NCBI GenBank assembly: GCA_050173015.1
Contig: JBFXLE010000013.1
Location: forward strand, 38,263 to 102,262
DNA: 64,000 bases
Direction: 5' to 3'
Source: Calditrichaceae bacterium
Lineage (GTDB): Bacteria; Calditrichota; Calditrichia; Calditrichales; JBFXGD01
Position 1 is the stretch's first letter, and each line of letters starts with the position of its first letter. Both the position numbers and the translations under genes were made by a program. This document shows, in pieces, positions 12,335 through 63,960 of the stretch. The notes under the pieces were generated by a model, which searched no databases, was not told where the DNA came from, and worked only from the letters and a program-made list of their open reading frames with translations.

Positions 12335-12913
12335 TTATTTGTAATAATTTGTATTTATAAATGGGGTCATCGCGGTGATCAGAGCAGATTCAAAAGCCCC
12401 TGTTCTGGTAATCAGGTTATTCGTTAATATACCGAATGCGCCTTCCCTGGACCGGACATCTTCCTGACCGCTAACCTCATCGATTATTTCTGATAGCTCT
12501 CTCTTCTTTTCATATAACTGCGCTTCAATGGAGACCGGTAGAGGAAGTCCCGGGGAGCAGCCAAAATATCCCTCAATACCGTTAAAAATATAGACCCAGC
12601 TTTGTAAAAAGACGTGATGTTTACTGTTTTGAGTAAAATCTAACCGATATGTTCCGCCTTCCATCCCAATGGCGTAATCCACTGCTCGATCTTGTTTTTT
12701 TAATAAATCAAATACAACATGAGCTCTTTCTGACGCGCCATTTAATAAATGTTCCAGTGAAAGCGGCATATCGGGAACCGTGGTTTCAGCATTAAGTGGA
12801 ATGAATTCTATTTTTGAATGGATGACTCCGGGAAATTTTCCACTTAATATTTTGAAAGCACTTTTACAGGCATTTACCTTAGCGTCATTTGTTGATCCGA
12901 TTCCCACAATCAT
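12335..12913 (-). CDS. yjjX: Inosine/xanthosine triphosphatase (YjjX/DUF84 family)
   Basis: GSTNDAKV, VPDMP, GASERA, GMEGG, GAFGILT. Confidence 0.85.
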   Translation of the reverse strand: MIVGIGSTNDAKVNACKSAFKILSGKFPGVIHSKIEFIPLNAETTVPDMPLSLEHLLNGASERAHVVFDLLKKQDRAVDYAIGMEGGTYRLDFTQNSKHHVFLQSWVYIFNGIEGYFGCSPGLPLPVSIEAQLYEKKRELSEIIDEVSGQEDVRSREGAFGILTNNLITRTGAFESALITAMTPFINTNYYK

Positions 12914-28254: not shown

Positions 28255-29663
28255 CAGAAAAAAAATATCCGGTCGGCAGAGGCAGGGATTACGAATTTAA
28301 GATAGAAAAACTGGCATTTGGCGGCGCCGGAGTGGCAAGAATAGATAATTATGTTGTTTTTGTGAAAAATGCGCTGCCGGGAGATCGGGTTATTGCCAGA
28401 ATAACAAAAAGAAAATCAACATTCGCGGAAGCCAGACTGGTTTCCATCATTGATAAATCCCCGCTAAGAACAGACGCGCCCTGTCCTCATTTCGAATGGT
28501 GCGGCGGATGCACATGGCAAAACCTGTCTTATGAAGATCAGCTGGATCATAAGTTCAAAATTGTGGAAGAATCACTTCATCACATCGCGGGTTTAAAAGA
28601 GATTCCGGTAAAACGGGTCCTTCCATCTGAAAAAATAGTCAGTTACCGCAACAAGATGGAATTTTCATTTTCTGACCGCAAATGGCTGACGCCCGAGCAG
28701 CTTGATGATAAGTCGATCAGCAAGGAATTCGCTCTCGGTTTACATGTGCCGGGAACTTTTGATAAGATTTTGCACATTGATCGGTGTTTGCTTCAGTCGG
28801 ATACAGCAAATGACATTCTCTCTTTTATTTCGGAGTATGTGCAAAAAAACGGACTTGAGCCATACGGTATAAAGTCGCACAAAGGATTCTTGCGTTTTCT
28901 TGTTCTAAGGGAGAGTACTTATACCGGTAAACTGATGGTAAATATTGTCACTGCTTATGAGAATACAAAAACACTAAAAAAGCTGGCTGATGAATTAATA
29001 AGCTGTTTCCCTTCGATCGGCAGTATTGTCAATAATATCAATAGCCGGCTCGCGCAAATTGCTGTTGGGGATATAGAAATCCTCCTTGCGGGTGAACCGG
29101 TGATACAGGAAAAGCTGGGAGAGTTTGAGTTTAATATCTCTGCCAATTCATTTTTCCAGACAAATACTTTGCAGGCTGAGAATCTTTATAAAAAAGTGAT
29201 GGAATTCGCTGATTTGAATCCAAATCAGATCGTTTGGGATTTATATGCCGGGACAGGTACCATAAGCCTTTTTCTTGCGCAAAAAGCCCGGCAGGTGATC
29301 GGATTTGAGCTGGCGGAAAGCGCGGTAAAAGATGCTGAAAAAAACGCGACGGACCATGGAATTGAAAATGCTTCTTTCGTCGGTGGGGATCTGTTGAAAG
29401 AATTGATGAAAGTGAATCCAAAACCGGATGTGGTTGTGACGGATCCGCCGCGCGCGGGAATGCATGAGAAGGTGGTGGAGTATCTTAATACACTCTCCCC
29501 GGAACGAATCGTTTATGTTTCATGTAATCCAACCACGCTCTCGAGGGATTTGGCTATTCTTGAAAAAAAATATGCCATTGATGAAGTCCAGCCGGTCGAT
29601 ATGTTCCCGCATACCTATCATATAGAAACGGTGGTCAAATTGAGCAGGAAGAAAGAGAAGTAG
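28251..29663 (+). CDS. rlmD: 23S rRNA m5U1939 methyltransferase
   Basis: TRAM domain, CPHFEWCGGC, YRNKMEF, SFFQTN, DLYAGTG, DPPRAG, YVSCNP, DMFPHTYHIE. Confidence 0.93.
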   Translation: MTEKKYPVGRGRDYEFKIEKLAFGGAGVARIDNYVVFVKNALPGDRVIARITKRKSTFAEARLVSIIDKSPLRTDAPCPHFEWCGGCTWQNLSYEDQLDHKFKIVEESLHHIAGLKEIPVKRVLPSEKIVSYRNKMEFSFSDRKWLTPEQLDDKSISKEFALGLHVPGTFDKILHIDRCLLQSDTANDILSFISEYVQKNGLEPYGIKSHKGFLRFLVLRESTYTGKLMVNIVTAYENTKTLKKLADELISCFPSIGSIVNNINSRLAQIAVGDIEILLAGEPVIQEKLGEFEFNISANSFFQTNTLQAENLYKKVMEFADLNPNQIVWDLYAGTGTISLFLAQKARQVIGFELAESAVKDAEKNATDHGIENASFVGGDLLKELMKVNPKPDVVVTDPPRAGMHEKVVEYLNTLSPERIVYVSCNPTTLSRDLAILEKKYAIDEVQPVDMFPHTYHIETVVKLSRKKEK

Positions 29664-29954
29664 GAAGTAGGAAGTAAGAAGTAGGAAGTTTAAGAAAAAA
29701 GATAAAAGAAAAAAGATGAAAAACGGTCTGAACTCGGATTAAAATGATTAAATGATTTGGATGATTAAGAAATTGGAAATCAGAGTTTTCATTTAATCAG
29801 GCGAATCATAGTTCAGACAAAGAAGTAGGAAGTAAGAAGTAAGAAGTAGGAAGTAAGAAGTAAGAAGTAAGAAGTAAGAATGAAAGAGCGTTAAGTGAAA
29901 AGGGTTAAGAGTAGGCGCACGATGCTCGTGCCCTATGTAGGAAGTAAGAAGTGG
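29657..29954 (+). repeat. GAAGTAR heptamer tracts flanking a 93-bp element with terminal inverted repeats (copy 1)
   Basis: Heptamers at 29657-29689 and 29822-29877 (8 units); element 29726-29818 bounded by GTCTGAACT/AGTTCAGAC; second copy at 63836-63928. Confidence 0.85.
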
Positions 29955-37605: not shown

Positions 37606-38339
37606 TTCTCCCCGGATTCAATTTTATTTAAAACGCGAAATAGATGGTATGGCAGGTGTGGTAATATCCAGGATGCTATCCGCCAGCGTTTCGAAATATA
37701 AACGATTCTTTTTCTCTTCCTAATCGACTTAATGATCTGACGCGCGGCTTTGTCAACCGGTACAAGCCAGAAGGCATTCTTCAGCCCGGCGATCATCGGT
37801 GTATCGACAAATCCCGGTCTAATATCCGAGACAAACACCGAATGCTTCTCAAGACGAAGGCTCAATCCTTCCATATAGGTGGATATAAATGCTTTAGACG
37901 CGTTGTAGGCGAGACTGCCCGGATTTCCAAAATATTTTGCCACGGATGAGATTCCCGCGAGATGGCCGCTTTTTTGATGTATAAAATATTTCGCGGCAAA
38001 ATTCGCGGCCGCCACAAATCCGTTCACATTGGTCCGGATAATATCTTCTTCAACTGAGAATTCAAGGTCTCTGTTTTTGCTGCTGAAAGCGGCCGATATG
38101 ATGCAGATATCCATGCCTCCGGTTTTGGAAATAAGAGACGCGCAGACAGGAGCGACGGTGTCGTAATCGATCATATCAAGCGCGGCGCCGAAGAATTTTC
38201 CCTTCCATTCTTTCTCCATATTGTTAAGAATTTGTTTACGCCGGCCGGTTCCGCCAACCATATATCCCATTTTAAGATACTGGCGGGCGAGTTCGAATCC
38301 GATCCCGGAGGTGCATCCGATGATAATCACTTTTTTCAT
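37569..38339 (-). CDS. SDR-family oxidoreductase
   Basis: IIGCTSGIG, ISS, YNASK, IRPGFVDTPM. Confidence 0.92.
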   Translation of the reverse strand: MKKVIIIGCTSGIGFELARQYLKMGYMVGGTGRRKQILNNMEKEWKGKFFGAALDMIDYDTVAPVCASLISKTGGMDICIISAAFSSKNRDLEFSVEEDIIRTNVNGFVAAANFAAKYFIHQKSGHLAGISSVAKYFGNPGSLAYNASKAFISTYMEGLSLRLEKHSVFVSDIRPGFVDTPMIAGLKNAFWLVPVDKAARQIIKSIRKRKRIVYISKRWRIASWILPHLPYHLFRVLNKIESGENHLKGETGPLSE

Positions 38340-38435
38340 TTATAATTTGTTCTTTCCTTTGATGACCGAGGTCAGTAAGTTGTTAAAAATAATTGTGATC
38401 AGTGAAATATACAAGTCAATTTGCAGATTTAGAAT

Positions 38436-39275
38436 ATGACTGCTAAAACAACAGTGCCTGAGGAAAACGGAGTCCCGTCTCAAAACACGAAGATTCAAAT
38501 CGGCACATCCGGTTACAGCTATGATGACTGGCGCGGACTCTTTTATCCGGATGGAATACAAAAAAAAGACATGCTCGAGTATTACACCAAGTATTTTAAT
38601 ACGGTCGAGATCAACGCGACGTATTACGCGATCCCCTCTGCTGATGTCTTTAGAAGAATGGCTGAAAAGACGCCGGGGCAGTTTGAATTCATTGTCAAAA
38701 CCCATCAGGAAACAACCCATCGCAGAGTGGAGAATGAATCGACTTTCAAAATACTGGCGGAGGCCGTTCAGCCGCTCATCGAATCGGGCAAATTCCGCGG
38801 ATTTTTGGCTCAATTTCCGTATTCGTTCAAAAACAACGAAGCCGGTCGGAAATATCTGATCGAGACGAGAAAATACGCGGGAAAATTTCCATTGTTTGCC
38901 GAATTCAGACATTCATCATGGAATAAACCGCAACTCGTCCCATTCATGAAAAATCATGGTATCGGTTATGTCAATGTGGATGAGCCGGCGCTGGCTGGAT
39001 TGATGCCGGTCCAGGACATCGCCACGGCGGAAACAGGGTATATCCGTTTTCATGGCCGTAATAAGGAAAACTGGTGGATCGGTCAGGGATCCGCGCGGTA
39101 TGACTATGAATATAAGGAAGAAGAGCTAAAGCAATGGCTGATTCACATCAGTAATCTGATGAAAAAAACCTATAAAACATATATTTTTTTTAATAATCAC
39201 CCCAATGGAAAAGCAGTTAAAAACGCCCGCCAGATGATGTCGCTGATTGATAAAATGCAGCAAAAGCTTTTATGA
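38436..39275 (+). CDS. DUF72 (YecE-family) TIM-barrel protein
   Basis: IGTSGYSYDDW, FNTVEINATYY, QFPYSF, EFRHSSW, VDEP, YIRFHGRN, RYDYEY, FFNNH. Confidence 0.93.
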   Translation: MTAKTTVPEENGVPSQNTKIQIGTSGYSYDDWRGLFYPDGIQKKDMLEYYTKYFNTVEINATYYAIPSADVFRRMAEKTPGQFEFIVKTHQETTHRRVENESTFKILAEAVQPLIESGKFRGFLAQFPYSFKNNEAGRKYLIETRKYAGKFPLFAEFRHSSWNKPQLVPFMKNHGIGYVNVDEPALAGLMPVQDIATAETGYIRFHGRNKENWWIGQGSARYDYEYKEEELKQWLIHISNLMKKTYKTYIFFNNHPNGKAVKNARQMMSLIDKMQQKLL

Positions 39276-40848
39276 TCTACTAAGGTTTGTGAAGACAACA
39301 ATAAGGTTTGATATACGGTAGGCTGTCCCCAGATAAACCTTATTTTAATTTTTTTAACCTTAGTAGAACAGTAGATTCCCCATCATGTTATACCTTATTA
39401 AAATGTTTTGATTTTGTTTTCAAATTTGATTTTTCATGTTTGTGTTTTTAATAAGGTAATAAGGTTAAGATTGAGTTGTGCTTTGTATTTCTACTAAGGT
39501 TTTGGAAGACAAAAATAAGGTTTAAATCACGCGGGCGGTCCTGAAAGAAACCTTATTTTTTTTAACCTTAGTAGAACAGTAGATTCCCCATCATGTTATA
39601 CCTTATTAAAATGTTTTGAGTTTGTGTTCAAATTTGATTTTTCATGTTAGTGTTTTTAATAAGGTAATAAGGTTAAGATTGAGTTGTGCTTTGTATTTCT
39701 ACTAAGGTTTGTGAAGACAACAATAAGGTTTGATATACGGTAGGCTGTCTTGAAATAAACCTTATTTTATTTTTTTTTAACCTTAGTAGACAGTAGATTC
39801 CCCATCATGTTATACCTTATTAAAATTTTTTGAGTTTGTGTTCAAATTTGATTTCTCATGTTTGTGTTTTTAATAAGGTAATAAGGTTAAGATTGAGTTG
39901 TGTTTTGTATTTCTAATAAGGTTTTGGAAGACAAAAATAAGGTTTAAATCACGCGGGCGGTCCTGAAATAAACCTTATTTTATTTTTTTTTAACCTTAGT
40001 AGACAGTAGATTCCCCATCATGTTATACCTTATTAAAATTTTTTGAGTTTGTGTTCAAATTTGATTTCTCATGTTTGTGTTTTTAATAAGGTAATAAGGT
40101 TAAGATTGAGTTGTGCTTTGTATTTCTACTAAGGTTTTGGAAGACAAAAATAAGGTTTAAATTACGGTAGGTTGTCCTGAAAAAACCTTATTTTATTCTC
40201 AGTTAACCTAAGTAGAAAAATAGATTCACAATAATTTTACACCTTATTAAAATGTTTTGATTTTGCGTTCAAATTTGATTTTTCATGTTTGTGTTTTTAA
40301 TAAGGTAATAAGGTTAAGATTGAGTTGTGCTTTGTATTTCTACTAAGGTTTTGTAAGACAAAAATAAGGTTTAAATCACGCGGGCGGTCCTGAAAGAAAC
40401 CTTATTTTTTTTTAACCTTAGTAGAACAGTAGATTCCCCATCATGTTATACCTTATTATAATGTTTTGAGTTTGTGTTCAAATTTGATTTTTCATGTTAG
40501 TGTTTTTAATAAGGTAATAAGGTTAAGATTGAGTTGTGTTTTGTTAATCTACTAAGGTTTTGGAAGACAAAAATAAGTTTTAAATTACGGTAGGTTGTCC
40601 TGAAAAAACCTTATTTTATTCTCAGTTAACCTAAGTAGAAAAATAGATTCACAATAATTTTATACCTTATTAAAATGTTTTGATTTTGTTTTCAAATTTG
40701 ATTTTTCATGTTTGTGTTTTTAATAAGGTAATAAGGTTAAGATTGAGTTGTGCTTTGTATTTCTACTAAGGTTTTGGAAGACAAAAATAAGGTTTAAATC
40801 ACGCGGGCGGTCCTGAAAGAAACCTTATTTTTTTTTAACCTTAGTAGA
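39276..40848. repeat. Tandem array of seven full and one partial 208-214-bp units built from inverted repeats
   Basis: Units start at 39276, 39490, 39698, 39912, 40125, 40339, 40548 and 40762 (TCTACTAAGG or variant); no ORF of 60 aa or more in the track. Confidence 0.97.
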
Positions 40849-40896
40849 AAAAGAATTTCCCAAATGCCCCCTTCCCTCCGGACAGGATGATCATAA

Positions 40897-42159
40897 TTAA
40901 TGGGATTCCTCGCCCCGGGAAAGACGAAGAAAAGGATAGATTAGCAGAAAAAGAACGCCGGCGAACATCAATCCGCCTCCGATTCCGGTAAGATCTATCA
41001 CCAGGCCTAAGACAGGGGCAAATATGGCGACCAGCAGGGTTTCCATCTGTGATTCCACGGAGAGGCCGGAGGCCATGACATCCTGTGAGATCAGTTCACT
41101 CAGATAGCTCACCGCCAGAGGCCGGCGAATGTTTTGAATCAGATAAAGGCTGATGAAGGCGATCACCGCCGGGATTGAATATTCCAGTTTCAATAAAACA
41201 CCTGAAATACCGATGCCTGTCACCCCTATCAGATAGGCGACATCGATGGAGTGCGGCAGATTTTTTAACCGCGCTTCCAGTTTCCAGGCATTACGGGCGG
41301 CATAGGATGTCATTAGAAAAATCAGAAAATATGTGAAGCCGATTACGATTGCCGACCTTTTTTGGGATTCAAACGCAACAAGTAGCGGTAAGGTAAGCGC
41401 CATGGTCTCAAGGACCGGCTGAATGTAATCTTTTGTGCTTTTAAACAGAGCAATATAAGCGGACGCGCTGAAAATCGCCCTCATGGAATTCACTGATTTA
41501 AAAATTTGCAAAAATGACCGCCATATCGCCGAGATTTCATTCCCGAGTGAAGGGAGAATCGAACGGCTTTTATCCTCCTTTGGACGTTTGTTTAAGGAAG
41601 ATGGGTATGTGCTGATCAGGATTAGATCAAGCAGATAGGGGATGGTTGTAATCAGAAATACTTCACGATAGTTTCCGGTTAGAAATACAATGACCATCGC
41701 TGACAGCGAACTAAGCGCCGATCCGATTTGCGACCATGAGCGGGTGCTTCCGTAATAACGGGTTTTGAATTGAACCAGGTTGTTTTGTTTAAGATAATCC
41801 AGAATCATCGCTTTGTGCGTCCCGGTGCGAAAGGCTTCGCCGATACCGAATGCGATCATCGCGAATGCATATAATCCGAAATCATGCGCTAAATAAAAAA
41901 CCGCGAATGAGATAATGTAGGAAAACATTGAAAACATCAGAGCGCTTTTTCTGCCGAAGGCGTCGGCCATTATGCCGGAAGGGATTTCAAAAATATTGAT
42001 GGTTACCTGACGAATGGAGTAGAGGGTTCCTATCTGAAGGTAGCTAATCCCGGATTCACGCAAAAAGAGAAGAAAGAAAATATCAAAAAAACGAAGATTT
42101 TTTAGAAATCCATACGCGCAAAATTTGTAGTATTGCAATGAGACAGGCATGCTTTGCAT
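40897..42159 (-). CDS. MFS transporter
   Basis: FEIPSGIMADAFGRK motif-A-like loop, GEAFRTGT; about 12 hydrophobic segments. Confidence 0.9.
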   Translation of the reverse strand: MQSMPVSLQYYKFCAYGFLKNLRFFDIFFLLFLRESGISYLQIGTLYSIRQVTINIFEIPSGIMADAFGRKSALMFSMFSYIISFAVFYLAHDFGLYAFAMIAFGIGEAFRTGTHKAMILDYLKQNNLVQFKTRYYGSTRSWSQIGSALSSLSAMVIVFLTGNYREVFLITTIPYLLDLILISTYPSSLNKRPKEDKSRSILPSLGNEISAIWRSFLQIFKSVNSMRAIFSASAYIALFKSTKDYIQPVLETMALTLPLLVAFESQKRSAIVIGFTYFLIFLMTSYAARNAWKLEARLKNLPHSIDVAYLIGVTGIGISGVLLKLEYSIPAVIAFISLYLIQNIRRPLAVSYLSELISQDVMASGLSVESQMETLLVAIFAPVLGLVIDLTGIGGGLMFAGVLFLLIYPFLRLSRGEESH

Positions 42160-42375
42160 TTATAGCGCTTTCTTATTGTTAGGATGTATAATTTATAAAA
42201 CCTGCAGGTCTTTATAAAAGAAAAATTTAATAAACTCCGGTTTTTTAGATATGATTTGGGATATTTGATTTATCAAACCGCTTGCCTTGAAAACAAAACT
42301 AAACTAAATTAAAATAGTAGTTTAATAATCAGAAATTTATATAGAATTTTTAAAATTTCAGAAACGGAGAAAGAA

Positions 42376-62926: not shown

Positions 62927-63780
62927 TCGATCTTCATATGCATACCAATTATTCTGACGGTTCTTACTCACCTGAAGAACTTATCGATTATGTCAGCGGG
63001 CGCGATTTAGGCATCATTGCCGTTACTGATCATGATGAAACCGGCGGTGTGATTCCGGCAAGGGAGTACGGGAAAAAAAGAGGAGTGGAAGTAATACCGG
63101 GAGTTGAACTCAGTATTGATATAGAGTTAACCGGCGCGGCGCATCTTCATTTGCTCGGACTGATGTTCGATCCGGGAAATGTCACATTAAAAAACGAATT
63201 AGCCCAATTGAAAAAAGCGCGGGAAGAGCGCGCGTTTATGATCGTCCAAAAATTGCGGGAAGCAGGGTTACCGATAGAAGCCGGTGATCTGGTTGATGCT
63301 GTTGGACAGGGGAGCGCGGGTCGTCCGCATATTGCGGAGATACTTATAAAAAGGGGCGTGGTCAGTGATATTTATGAGGCCTTCAGCACCTACTTAAGCA
63401 AAGGAAGGCCGGGGTATGTGCCAAAGAAAAAACTAAAACTGGCTCCCGCCATTGAATTGATTCATGGAGCGGGTGGACTGGCGATACTCGCGCATCCGGT
63501 AAGCCTGAAATGTAAAACTTACCGCGAACTGGGTGAAAAAATAATCGAAATGAAATCCGTCGGACTCGATGGCATTGAGGCTTACTATCCCGGACATGAC
63601 AAATATTTGACGAAATGGCTGGTCACATTCGCCGGGAAGAATCATTTGCTCCTTTCCGGAGGCTCTGATTTTCACGGCTCGGCCAAACCGGATGTGGAAC
63701 CCGGGATCGGAAGAGGCAGCCTTGATATTCCAACGGATCTCGTGGAGAGGATGAGGGAGGAAGTAAGAAGTAGGAAGTGA
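62920..63780 (+). CDS. PHP-domain metal-dependent phosphoesterase (YciV/TrpH-like)
   Basis: DLHMHTNYSDG, TDHD, GVELS, GRPHIA, LAHP, GGSDFHG. Confidence 0.93.
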   Translation: MLIDLHMHTNYSDGSYSPEELIDYVSGRDLGIIAVTDHDETGGVIPAREYGKKRGVEVIPGVELSIDIELTGAAHLHLLGLMFDPGNVTLKNELAQLKKAREERAFMIVQKLREAGLPIEAGDLVDAVGQGSAGRPHIAEILIKRGVVSDIYEAFSTYLSKGRPGYVPKKKLKLAPAIELIHGAGGLAILAHPVSLKCKTYRELGEKIIEMKSVGLDGIEAYYPGHDKYLTKWLVTFAGKNHLLLSGGSDFHGSAKPDVEPGIGRGSLDIPTDLVERMREEVRSRK

Positions 63781-63960
63781 GAAGTAGGAAGTAGGAAGGA
63801 TAAGAAAAAAGATAAAAGAAAAAAGATTAAGAACGGTCTGAACTCGGATTAATATGATTAAATGATTAAGATGATTAAGAAACCGGAAATCAGAGTTTTC
63901 ATTTAGTCAAACGAATCATAGTTCAGACAAATAAAGTAAGAAGTAGGAAGTGGGAAGTAG
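63760..63960 (+). repeat. GAAGTAR heptamer tracts flanking a 93-bp element with terminal inverted repeats (copy 2)
   Basis: Element 63836-63928 has the same length as, and is closely similar to, 29726-29818; heptamers at 63760-63794 and 63933-63960. Confidence 0.85.

Follow-up and report, generated by a model that had tools for sequence, protein, structure and literature searches.

Between a DUF72 gene and a gene encoding a major facilitator superfamily (MFS) transporter, the genome of a Calditrichaceae bacterium (assembly GCA_050173015.1) harbors a tandem array of hairpin-forming repeats, which is treated here together with a Y1 transposase gene found elsewhere in the same genome. The array lies at positions 39276-40848 of the window, that is, the whole stretch of 64,000 nucleotides analysed (contig JBFXLE010000013.1, 38,263 to 102,262); positions given without a contig name refer to the window. 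Since the MFS gene is located on the strand opposite to that of the DUF72 gene, the array occupies the gap between two convergent genes, both of which are neighbours lying outside the repeat system. An earlier note on this DNA, made from the sequence alone, had described the array as seven units of about 212 bp plus a half unit, each composed of a hairpin A and a hairpin B, and had offered three explanations: (a) a multimeric RNA processed into units and possibly acting with the DUF72 protein; (b) a palindrome cluster maintained by a HUH transposase encoded elsewhere; and (c) a protein-binding DNA platform.

The layout described in that note is largely borne out. Tandem Repeats Finder delimits the array at 39276-40836, with a period of 214 bp, 7.4 copies, and 88% matches (score 2403), and the distances between the starts of consecutive units (214, 208, 214, 213, 214, 209, and 214) are identical to those given before. 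A second call on the same array has a higher-order period of 423 bp (3.7 copies, 93% matches), which is better conserved than the 214-bp one. The first TCTACTAAGGTT is found at 39276, the first base after the TGA of the DUF72 gene, as had been claimed. Hairpin A is present in eight copies of 86-93 nt, and complete copies stand at both ends of the array, the first at 39276-39367 and the last at 40762-40848; the end previously placed at 40848 is right for the last hairpin A, but homology to the unit extends about 20 nt beyond it. The "loops" of hairpin A (24-25 nt) are, as stated, not unique: there are three sequence types among the eight, in the order X Y X Y Z Y Z Y. As single-stranded DNA (ssDNA), both hairpins fold far better than shuffled sequences, with energies of -13.8 to -18.4 kcal/mol (z from -3.3 to -5.9) for hairpin A and of -8.6 kcal/mol (z -4.3) for hairpin B, which has a 13-bp stem; in either case, 0 of 200 shuffles folded as well. 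The core word TAAGGT (ACCTTA on the other strand), from which the unit is built, occurs 50 times in the array. The regular spacing, the alternating orientation of the repeats, and the short linkers give the array a layout like that of bacterial interspersed mosaic elements (BIMEs).

Throughout the genome (4.34 Mb; hereinafter G000), clusters of at least four TAAGGT/ACCTTA words within 80 nt are found solely in the array, at C10:10334-11449, and at two sites on contig C4; moreover, a hairpin A profile retrieves 12 full copies (eight in the array and four at C10) plus about eight half sites. The C10 cluster contains a Y1 transposase gene, with two full copies of hairpin A and double words on each side of it. 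The earlier note had recommended searching the genome for a Y1 transposase, or for a transposase of the RAYT type (associated with repetitive extragenic palindromes, REPs), flanked by the palindrome of the array, and this search succeeds at C10:10639-11073; option (b) is therefore strongly supported, the more so as an orthologue of the gene lies inside the homologous array of a second genome of the same genus (G001).

The words that make up hairpins A and B are a double AATAAGGT word, a TAAGGTT word tagged with CTAC/GTAG, and a further AATAAGGTTT word (word c). In the gene-bearing form, composite inverted repeats of about 55-75 nt bracket the Y1 gene. Read outward from the gene, an arm begins with the double word AATAAGGTAATAAGGTT; after a free spacer of about 23 nt comes the tagged word TCTACTAAGGTT, and another free spacer, of about 12 nt, often leads to AATAAGGTTT. 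On the coding strand, the region upstream of the gene thus reads (AAACCTTATT, about 12 nt,) AACCTTAGTAGA, about 23 nt, AACCTTATTACCTTATT, 2-20 nt, ATG, and the region downstream is its mirror image, AATAAGGTAATAAGGTT, about 23 nt, TCTACTAAGGTT (about 12 nt, AATAAGGTTT). In 51 of 53 cases, the distance between the inverted repeat and the start codon is 2-20 nt.

An element of the array has, on the left, word c, the tagged word, and a degenerate double word; a core of about 45 nt comes next; and the right side starts with a perfect double word, followed after 23 nt by the tagged word and then by word c. In the global alignment of array element 2 with the gene-bearing C10 element, both ends match, including the surroundings of the start codon, and the open reading frame (ORF) is replaced by the core of about 45 nt, which is the "loop" of hairpin B; the internal matches are too short to be trusted. 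The array units are therefore gene-less derivatives generated by internal deletion. Each unit is a gene-less element of 184-190 bp, like the miniature inverted-repeat transposable elements (MITEs) of insertion sequences (ISs) or the REP doublets forming hairpins (REPINs) of REPtrons. The unit drawn in the earlier note, hairpin A followed by hairpin B, should accordingly be redrawn as an inverted-repeat-bounded element centred on hairpin B. Neighbouring elements lie only 24-25 nt apart, so that hairpin A arises where the right arm of an element meets the left arm of the following one; what had been regarded as a constant scaffold with a variable loop is the junction of two adjacent elements with a co-amplified spacer. 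The whole element folds as a long interrupted hairpin and hairpin A folds as well, either pairing being possible in ssDNA. When the spacers themselves are aligned, types X, Y, and Z prove homologous to those of G001 and C10. Elements and spacers have thus been duplicated jointly, from which we infer that the array grew by unequal recombination or replication slippage of two-unit blocks and not by repeated insertions.

In our opinion, the array is very probably a cluster in which seven complete copies and two halves of a non-autonomous (MITE- or REPIN-like) derivative of the Y1 element stand in tandem, that is, the remnant of a REPtron or TIRtron (Table 1). The full element would consist of a gene for a 144-aa IS200-like Y1 (HUH-tyrosine) protein bracketed by the composite inverted repeats. 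The protein would recognise the words and nick and rejoin ssDNA there, probably when the arms of one element, or those of two neighbours, pair as long interrupted hairpins at the replication fork. Its action on the words would have spread gene-less copies in the past, and the array would have been enlarged later, in two-unit blocks and with its spacers, as outlined above. The array of G000 is now probably an inert relic, with at most side effects on the termination or stability of the convergent DUF72 and MFS transcripts.

Table 1. Features of the array, of its neighbours, and of the related loci in the same genome.
Feature	Position	Strand	Basis or remark
DUF72 gene, 279 aa	38436-39275, including TGA	+	Pfam PF01904, E 2.5e-62
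Terminal half element, right arm only (tagged word TCTACTAAGGTT + AATAAGGTTT)	39276-39309	+	Sequence
Inter-element spacer 1, type X (the "loop of hairpin A")	39310-39334	.	Homologous to G001 and C10 spacers
Gene-less element 1, 189 nt	39335-39523	+	Arm layout by homology, from the alignment of element 2 with C10
Element 1, left arm: AAACCTTATT, AACCTTAGTAGA, degenerate double word; then core of about 45 nt replacing the gene			
Element 1, right arm: AATAAGGTAATAAGGTT, 23 nt, TCTACTAAGGTT, AATAAGGTTT			
Spacers 2-4, 24-25 nt	39524-39547, 39732-39756, 39946-39969	.	Types Y, X, Y
Gene-less element 2, 184 nt	39548-39731	+	Folds into a single long hairpin with interruptions, -20.4 kcal/mol, z -4.2
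Gene-less element 3, 189 nt	39757-39945	+	
Gene-less element 4, 189 nt	39970-40158	+	
Spacers 5-8, 24-25 nt	40159-40182, 40373-40396, 40582-40605, 40796-40819	.	Types Z, Y, Z, Y
Gene-less element 5, 190 nt	40183-40372	+	
Gene-less element 6, 185 nt	40397-40581	+	
Gene-less element 7, 190 nt	40606-40795	+	
Half element closing the array: left arm (AAACCTTATT, AACCTTAGTAGA), then about 20 nt of unit sequence in decay	40820-40870	+	Right-hand boundary the same in G001
MFS transporter gene	40897-42159	-	Pfam MFS_1, E 1.4e-14; syntenic in G001
Y1 transposase ORF, 144 aa	G000:C10:10639-11073	-	Pfam Y1_Tnp ("Transposase IS200 like"), E 1.6e-15
Second gene-less subfamily, full copies	C4:18775-18995, C4:205805-206004, C4:207600-207805, C10:84898-85102		Two partial copies on C5

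The only other genome of the genus in the comparison is G001, whose Y1 orthologue (75% identical) and DUF72 orthologue (83% identical) are located on one contig. The order there is SLT/TPR, SDR, DUF72, about 230 nt, two units, the Y1 gene, about five units, MFS, GltX, and HisK; the Y1 gene is on the strand opposite to DUF72, and three of the about five later units lack hairpin B. Except for the absence of a gene inside the array, the window shows the same gene order; hence, the window array represents the orthologous locus of a transposase-plus-repeats cluster. The G001 array differs from that of the window in the number of units and in gene content, and its double words are degenerate. The approximately 230 nt separating it from DUF72, in turn, imply that the contact between array and DUF72 stop codon is special to the genome analysed here. 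Within the same 230 nt (G001:C62, about 12830-12870) there is a run of purine-rich 7-nt tandem repeats (GAAGTAG / AAGAAGT / AGGAAGT), which is also found in the window at 29657-29880 and 63758-63880.

The distribution of the gene was checked by searching 185,579 species, each represented by one genome, with the C10 protein and retaining the best 80 of 360 relatives, which share 67-75% identity with it and come from 79 genomes. According to the record labels (the bin assignment of short contigs may be wrong), these loci belong to Bacteroidota (many families), Ignavibacteria, Calditrichia, Desulfobacterales, Fibrobacteres/Chitinivibrionales, and Atribacteria, with one short Verrucomicrobia contig, and thus to at least seven phylum-level groups. 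A double word (up to three mismatches) followed within 60 nt by a tagged word (up to one mismatch) is present upstream of the gene in 50 of 77 evaluable loci and downstream in 53 of 76; 58 of 74 have the pair on at least one side and 40 of 74 on both, and none of 749 random control windows taken from the same loci at 1.2 kb or more from the gene contains it. Inspection by eye of the 13 loci with the pair on neither side revealed in several of them a variant, of a Prolixibacteraceae type, whose double word has an additional base separating its halves and a word spacing of 9 nt, which suggests that the true share of word-flanked loci is higher. Double and tagged word are nearly always 21-29 nt apart (mostly 22-26 nt), and the intervening sequence is not conserved. 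In the word logo, which is anchored on the words used for the selection, the only independent positions are the T-run before CTAC and the T after the words.

Gene-less elements accompany the gene in 10 of the 80 loci, one to four of them in tandem. The neighbouring genes are not conserved, the largest shared neighbour family occurring in 7 of the 80 loci. In G000, the Y1 gene is embedded in a type I restriction-modification (R-M) operon (C10:6273-14099), between a RhuM-family gene and hsdS, in the order hsdR, rhuM, Y1, hsdS, and hsdM and on one strand throughout. Probing with this RhuM did not retrieve any match from G001, G009, G011, or G019 (the last three being other Calditrichota genomes), and a preference of the Y1 gene for R-M operons was rejected, no R-M genes adjoining it in the 80 related loci.

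Among 86 Calditrichota genomes, the arm pattern was detected in nine: G000 (24 arms), G001 (8), G009 (32), G011 (23), and G019 (52), with lesser counts in G083 (4), G078 (2), G008 (1), and G088 (1); the reversed pattern gave two hits in all 86. Six genomes carry at least four arms, and five of these (G000 itself, G001, G009, G011, and G083) possess a Y1 orthologue with at least 71% identity, the protein having been searched in 41 + 5 genomes and the arms in 86, and related genomes being non-independent samples. The sixth, G019 (85% complete), has 52 arms, yet no Y1 orthologue was found in it. As for the genomes with few arms, the single arm of G088 lies about 100 nt from a 57%-identical Y1 fragment that contains a stop codon, and G078, with one arm pair, has only a 39% Y1 homologue. 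In genus g5 (Calditrichota; three genomes), the arms made of tagged word and word c number 32, 23, and 52 and are distributed, among the matches listed, over more than a dozen contigs in each genome, with elements 130-200 nt apart. At two g5 loci (G009:C161 and G011:C180), the Y1 gene sits between two gene-less elements, in the position of the "loop" of hairpin A, whereas in most of the 80 loci it lies inside an element; the double words of G009 and G011 are degenerate (TAAGCT for TAAGGT). Outside the phylum, Terrimonas pollutisoli has 19 exact double-word-to-tagged-word arms on at least eight contigs (0 in the reversed-pattern control), the spacers of which differ between copies.

The earlier note had also asked whether the unit is dispersed or always found beside DUF72. 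Both situations are encountered in part: gene-less copies are dispersed in G000 and G001 shares the DUF72 site, which over the whole family represents 1 of 80 loci. The dispersed copies include a second gene-less subfamily of about 210 nt with a distinct core of about 100 nt, present in G000 as four full and two partial copies on three contigs with 73-86% identity. Two direct copies of this subfamily (about 200 bp each) bracket, at C4:205805-207805, a gene for a predicted lipoprotein of 292 aa that matches neither Pfam nor NCBIfam; this layout resembles a composite unit or the outcome of recombination between repeats.

Concerning the transposase, the C10 protein carries Y1_Tnp as its sole domain. 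It scores 49.2 bits with the NCBIfam model transpos_IS200, under the 55-bit cut-off, and its similarity to solved IS200/IS605 transposases is weak (E 0.17-0.95), although the HUH and Tyr motifs line up. The Tyr motif is conserved in 80 of 80 relatives, and so is the Y---Q--HH motif, which is shared by all four Y1 genes of G000. According to Quentin et al. 2018 (PMC6006769), Y---Q--HH is the signature of subclass 1.2 (class 1) of the TnpA_Y1 transposases, a low-copy subclass without IS properties; in the same text, REPs are reported for subclasses 2.2, 2.4, 2.5, 2.7, and 2.8 and atypical structures for subclass 2.6 and class 3, and the section on REP-like sequences does not mention subclass 1.2. 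Judged by the published description and not by the hidden Markov model of those authors, the C10 protein can be assigned to subclass 1.2: it shows the Y---Q--HH motif, a short protein, a low copy number, and no IS200-type self-folding ends. The orthologue is present in single copy in G000, G001, G009, and G011.

If this assignment is right, the data raise the possibility, which we advance tentatively and would not yet back over its negation, that subclass 1.2 has a cognate DNA in the form of a four-word inverted repeat (the double AATAAGGT, the CTAC-tagged TAAGGTT, and AATAAGGTTT) whose spacing is fixed, whose spacers are free in sequence, and whose words are retained with hardly a letter changed in Bacteroidota, Calditrichota, Ignavibacteria, Desulfobacterota, and Fibrobacterota. 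Should the protein read the words directly, and not a lineage-specific hairpin, this would represent a distinct mode of end recognition among HUH-Y1 enzymes and, in addition, an ancient and widely shared partnership similar to that of REPINs, of which the arrays would be the amplified non-autonomous offspring.

Several observations weigh against the interpretation of the array as an offshoot of the Y1 element. The HUH motif of the C10 protein reads HVY, the second His being replaced by Tyr, in G000 only; H-u-H is retained in the G001, G009, and G011 orthologues and in 80 of 80 relatives (69 recognised by pattern, namely 57 HVH, 6 HAH, 4 HIH, and 2 HMH, and 11 by eye). From established HUH enzymology, the loss of this metal-binding His makes the present-day activity of the G000 protein doubtful, and the protein is probably inactive. 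The motif Y---Q--HH in place of Y---NP implies that it is no canonical RAYT. Single arms do not form a self-folding hairpin, unlike canonical REPs or IS200 ends; the ssDNA-hairpin step of the proposed mechanism is thus an analogy. The copy number in G000 is low, with the 12 full copies of hairpin A confined to two loci and few dispersed copies; typical REPs number in the hundreds per genome. Neither a target-site duplication nor an empty site could be defined: the flanks of C4:18775-18995 matched in G001 only another copy of the element, with non-homologous flanks, and the comparison of the C10:84898-85102 region with G001 gave many unrelated repeat hits and no orthologous empty site. Furthermore, the public contigs confirm the two junctions of the array, the unit number being that of the assembly, and the support for a link between subclass 1.2 and a word-built inverted repeat is comparative.

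Among known systems, the locus can be compared at first with REPtrons and BIMEs, which, REPINs included, it would resemble in its way of working. Nunvar in 2010 and Ton-Hoang in 2012 reportedly described a tnpA_REP (RAYT) gene accompanied by REP pairs, and clusters of REPs in alternating orientation. In common with such systems, a HUH-Y1 gene present in single copy stands between inverted copies of a repeat, which is encountered apart from the gene as well; gene-less doublets and tandem clusters are located in intergenic DNA between convergent genes; a GTAG/CTAC tetranucleotide adjoins the conserved word; and each of the remaining Y1 genes in G000 is accompanied by a repeat family of its own. 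There are also differences. An arm consists here of three or four TAAGGT-type words in direct repetition, separated by free spacers, and forms no hairpin, and the repeat is not a short self-folding palindrome with a 5' GT[AG]G foot. GTAG is found on the inner (gene-ward) side of the word, and hence at the 3' foot of hairpin A, in contrast to the 5' foot of the Escherichia coli REP. The words are shared across phyla, whereas REP families are described as gene- and lineage-specific, and the copy number of more than 100 per genome seen for REPs is not reached (24 arms in G000, 8-52 in the richer relatives, and 19 in Terrimonas). Lastly, the Y1 protein belongs to class 1, subclass 1.2 (Y---Q--HH), and RAYTs to class 2 (Y---NP; PMC6006769).

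In form, TIRtrons are the closest: according to Di Nocera et al. 2013 (PMC3733652), they are tyrosine transposase genes with non-REP inverted repeats, copies of which occur in dimers or clusters, and some of these terminal inverted repeats (TIRs) overlap the ends of the ORF. The locus likewise has a Y1 gene bracketed by non-REP inverted repeats and copies in clusters. However, most of the TIRYT proteins described (PMC6006769, PMC3733652) belong to subclass 2.1 and have C-terminal domains similar to helix-turn-helix motifs, and their TIRs share GGGGWSAS; here, the protein is a short one of subclass 1.2 and the TIR is made of AATAAGGT words. The array unit agrees in part with a MITE, being a short non-coding element that has the TIRs of its gene-bearing partner and shows an internal deletion; the target-site duplications that also characterise MITEs could not be defined.

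REPINs were reportedly introduced by Bertels and Rainey in 2011. Like them, the elements have two inverted arms and a short core that together form a long hairpin, are presumed to be the non-autonomous unit that a single-copy transposase mobilises, and are found both beside the gene of that transposase and dispersed; REPINs (PMC5581495) are instead doublets of short GC-rich REP hairpins tied to Group 2 or Group 3 RAYTs, a group classification that does not cover the Y1 family considered here, according to Quentin et al. 2018 (PMC6006769). The IS200/IS605 family is the closest at the protein level (Y1_Tnp), and the gene-less units resemble its internal-deletion derivatives; nevertheless, its ends are distinct subterminal hairpins without TIRs and its members are multi-copy (PMC6006769), in contrast to the inverted repeats, non-self-folding ends, and one gene copy per genome of this system.

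Regularly spaced palindromic repeats with short intervening sequences are also typical of CRISPR arrays and of integron attC arrays, both of which were rejected on anatomy. In agreement with the earlier note, CRISPR is at odds with repeats of about 185-190 nt (units of 208-214 bp) and with intervening sequences of 24-25 nt belonging to three recurring types; for attC, the R''/R' core sites, in what we take to be their consensus, are absent from the array, and the gene that goes with it encodes a Y1 transposase. In the literature searched, nothing was found that describes these words or a repeat counterpart for subclass 1.2, a scope that leaves aside subscription-only papers and ISfinder. A text search with the four words as letter strings retrieved unrelated primers only, and TAAGGT occurs in the supplements of PMC6006769 in one string, within an unrelated REP of subclass 2.2.

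An alternative that shares most of this evidence is that the gene and its inverted repeats form an ordinary, still selfish IS from a TIR-bearing branch of IS200, with the array units as its MITEs; it departs from a REPtron or TIRtron remnant solely in the life style of the system. The close fit of the inverted repeats to the ORF would agree with it, and the protein, about 70% identical across several phyla amid unconserved neighbours, suggests horizontal spread. Moreover, two copies (L096 and L102) are present in one metagenome-assembled genome (MAG), and a second one, with two stop codons, occurs in G083; the gene of a further relative, L123, contains an internal stop codon. We nonetheless consider this alternative unlikely. 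The gene is single-copy in the four genomes named above, and the best 80 loci come from as many as 79 genomes; the family is nearly absent from plasmids, with two hits of at most 47% identity in 72,556 plasmid records; and the subclass is presented as low-copy and devoid of IS properties (PMC6006769). In addition, dispersed copies have retained the words after divergence of their spacers, which points to long persistence and not to recent bursts.

It is very unlikely, in our view, that the array serves as a host platform with a chromosomal function, bound by a nucleoid protein, gyrase, a regulator, or another non-Y1 protein, as option (c) of the earlier note would have it. In E. coli, BIMEs do bind IHF, gyrase, and Pol I, and a regular array of short conserved words in both orientations, kept at one site in two species, would be consistent with such a role. 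On the other hand, the words track the Y1 gene and no host function; unit number, gene content, and double words differ strongly between the two species; and no other candidate binding protein is linked to the array. What remains of that option is the predicted function of the words as binding sites for the transposase.

Still less can be said for a multimeric structured RNA, co-transcribed with DUF72 and processed to unit-length molecules (option (a)), which we regard as highly improbable. The array does follow the DUF72 stop codon directly, a simple scan places no terminator between them, and the units fold well. Nevertheless, an Rfam scan of 38000-42000 with E up to 10 gave three chance-level hits only (two plant microRNA models and AgrB, E 2-8), and hairpin A folds on one strand as well as on the other (z -5.9 and -5.3). 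In the covariation check suggested by the earlier note, carried out on 19 hairpin copies of G000 and G001, 0 of 22 pairs were compensatory; 90.8% of the cells pair, the values equal those of shuffles, and each departure breaks a pair. In the simple scan of 38300-42300, promoter-like sites numbered 8 (12.6 expected) and terminator-like sites 2 (3.6 expected), none tellingly placed in the array. Across phyla, conservation resides in the words as sequence, the spacers and "loops" drifting and the pairings not being kept. The supposed tie to DUF72 fares no better: DUF72 is found within 3 kb of the Y1 gene in 1 of the 80 family loci, namely G001 itself, where about 230 nt and an opposite-strand transposase gene interrupt the arrangement, and around the DUF72 orthologues of G009, G011, and G019 no hairpin A match was found up to about 1.5 kb away. 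The adjacency is thus lineage-specific.

Lastly, the array or its copy number could be an artefact of assembly. The public sequencing runs listed for the region include none of RNA. Contigs of four public DNA runs from four studies were aligned to it; they cover the DUF72 junction up to 39305 or 39397 and the MFS junction from 40789 or 40820, and all of them break inside the array, so that the check by spanning reads proposed earlier confirms the two junctions in independent contigs but not the number of units. In one run (X5), a 205-nt contig joins 39547 to 40606, skipping 1058 nt (five units), which would be either a shorter array allele of another population or an artefact of the assembly graph. 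Such an error is scarcely credible for the array as a whole, given that both junctions recur in independent runs of different studies, that the depth in run X1 is 125-175 in the array versus about 40 in the flanks, as expected for a multi-copy repeat, that an independent sister-species MAG has a homologous array at the same site, and that the units differ among themselves in an ordered pattern. In run X4, the loose end of a contig resembles, by eye, the 3' end region of the G001-type gene directly after an arm of hairpin A, which hints at a further population with the gene inside the array.

For the window itself, the reading of the array as a remnant of a Y1 element is deflationary: the 1.6-kb "hairpin array" would be selfish or relic repeat DNA, with no new RNA and no partner for DUF72, and it is a variant of the known REPtron and TIRtron systems, the new part being the link between Y1 subclass 1.2 and a word repeat. 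For the field of HUH transposases, REPs, and REPINs, this link gives proteins without a substrate a concrete candidate DNA partner, unusually conserved across phyla and built of short words instead of GC-rich hairpins. The cultured carrier T. pollutisoli makes binding and cleavage assays feasible. Annotators may consider such arrays in MAGs of Calditrichota, Ignavibacteria, and Bacteroidota as repeat clusters that break short-read assemblies.

All four Pfam Y1_Tnp genes of G000 are flanked by palindrome arrays of their own, which suggests that transposase-plus-repeat clusters are the rule for the subclass in this genome. The gene at C5:165018-165362 (subclass 1.2, with an intact HVH) has tandem arrays on both sides (C5:163900-166000, periods of about 64-131 nt) belonging to a different repeat family, with a CCCCGAAGGGG mini-hairpin followed by TGACATGATTATAG-like words. 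The genes in C4:44525-47869 and C22:60633-63977 (about 158 aa, HVH) share a third repeat system, composed of tandem units of 167 or 255 bp with three short palindromes (ACCCATGACTTnAGTCATGGGT, CCCACGATTnAAATCGTGGG, and AAACCGATnnATCGGTTT); a AAACCGATnnATCGGTTT-like palindrome is also present in the inter-element spacers of the g5 arrays. Elsewhere in G000, the peptide motif TPNLGV(ST) occurs three times at C9:115600-117050.

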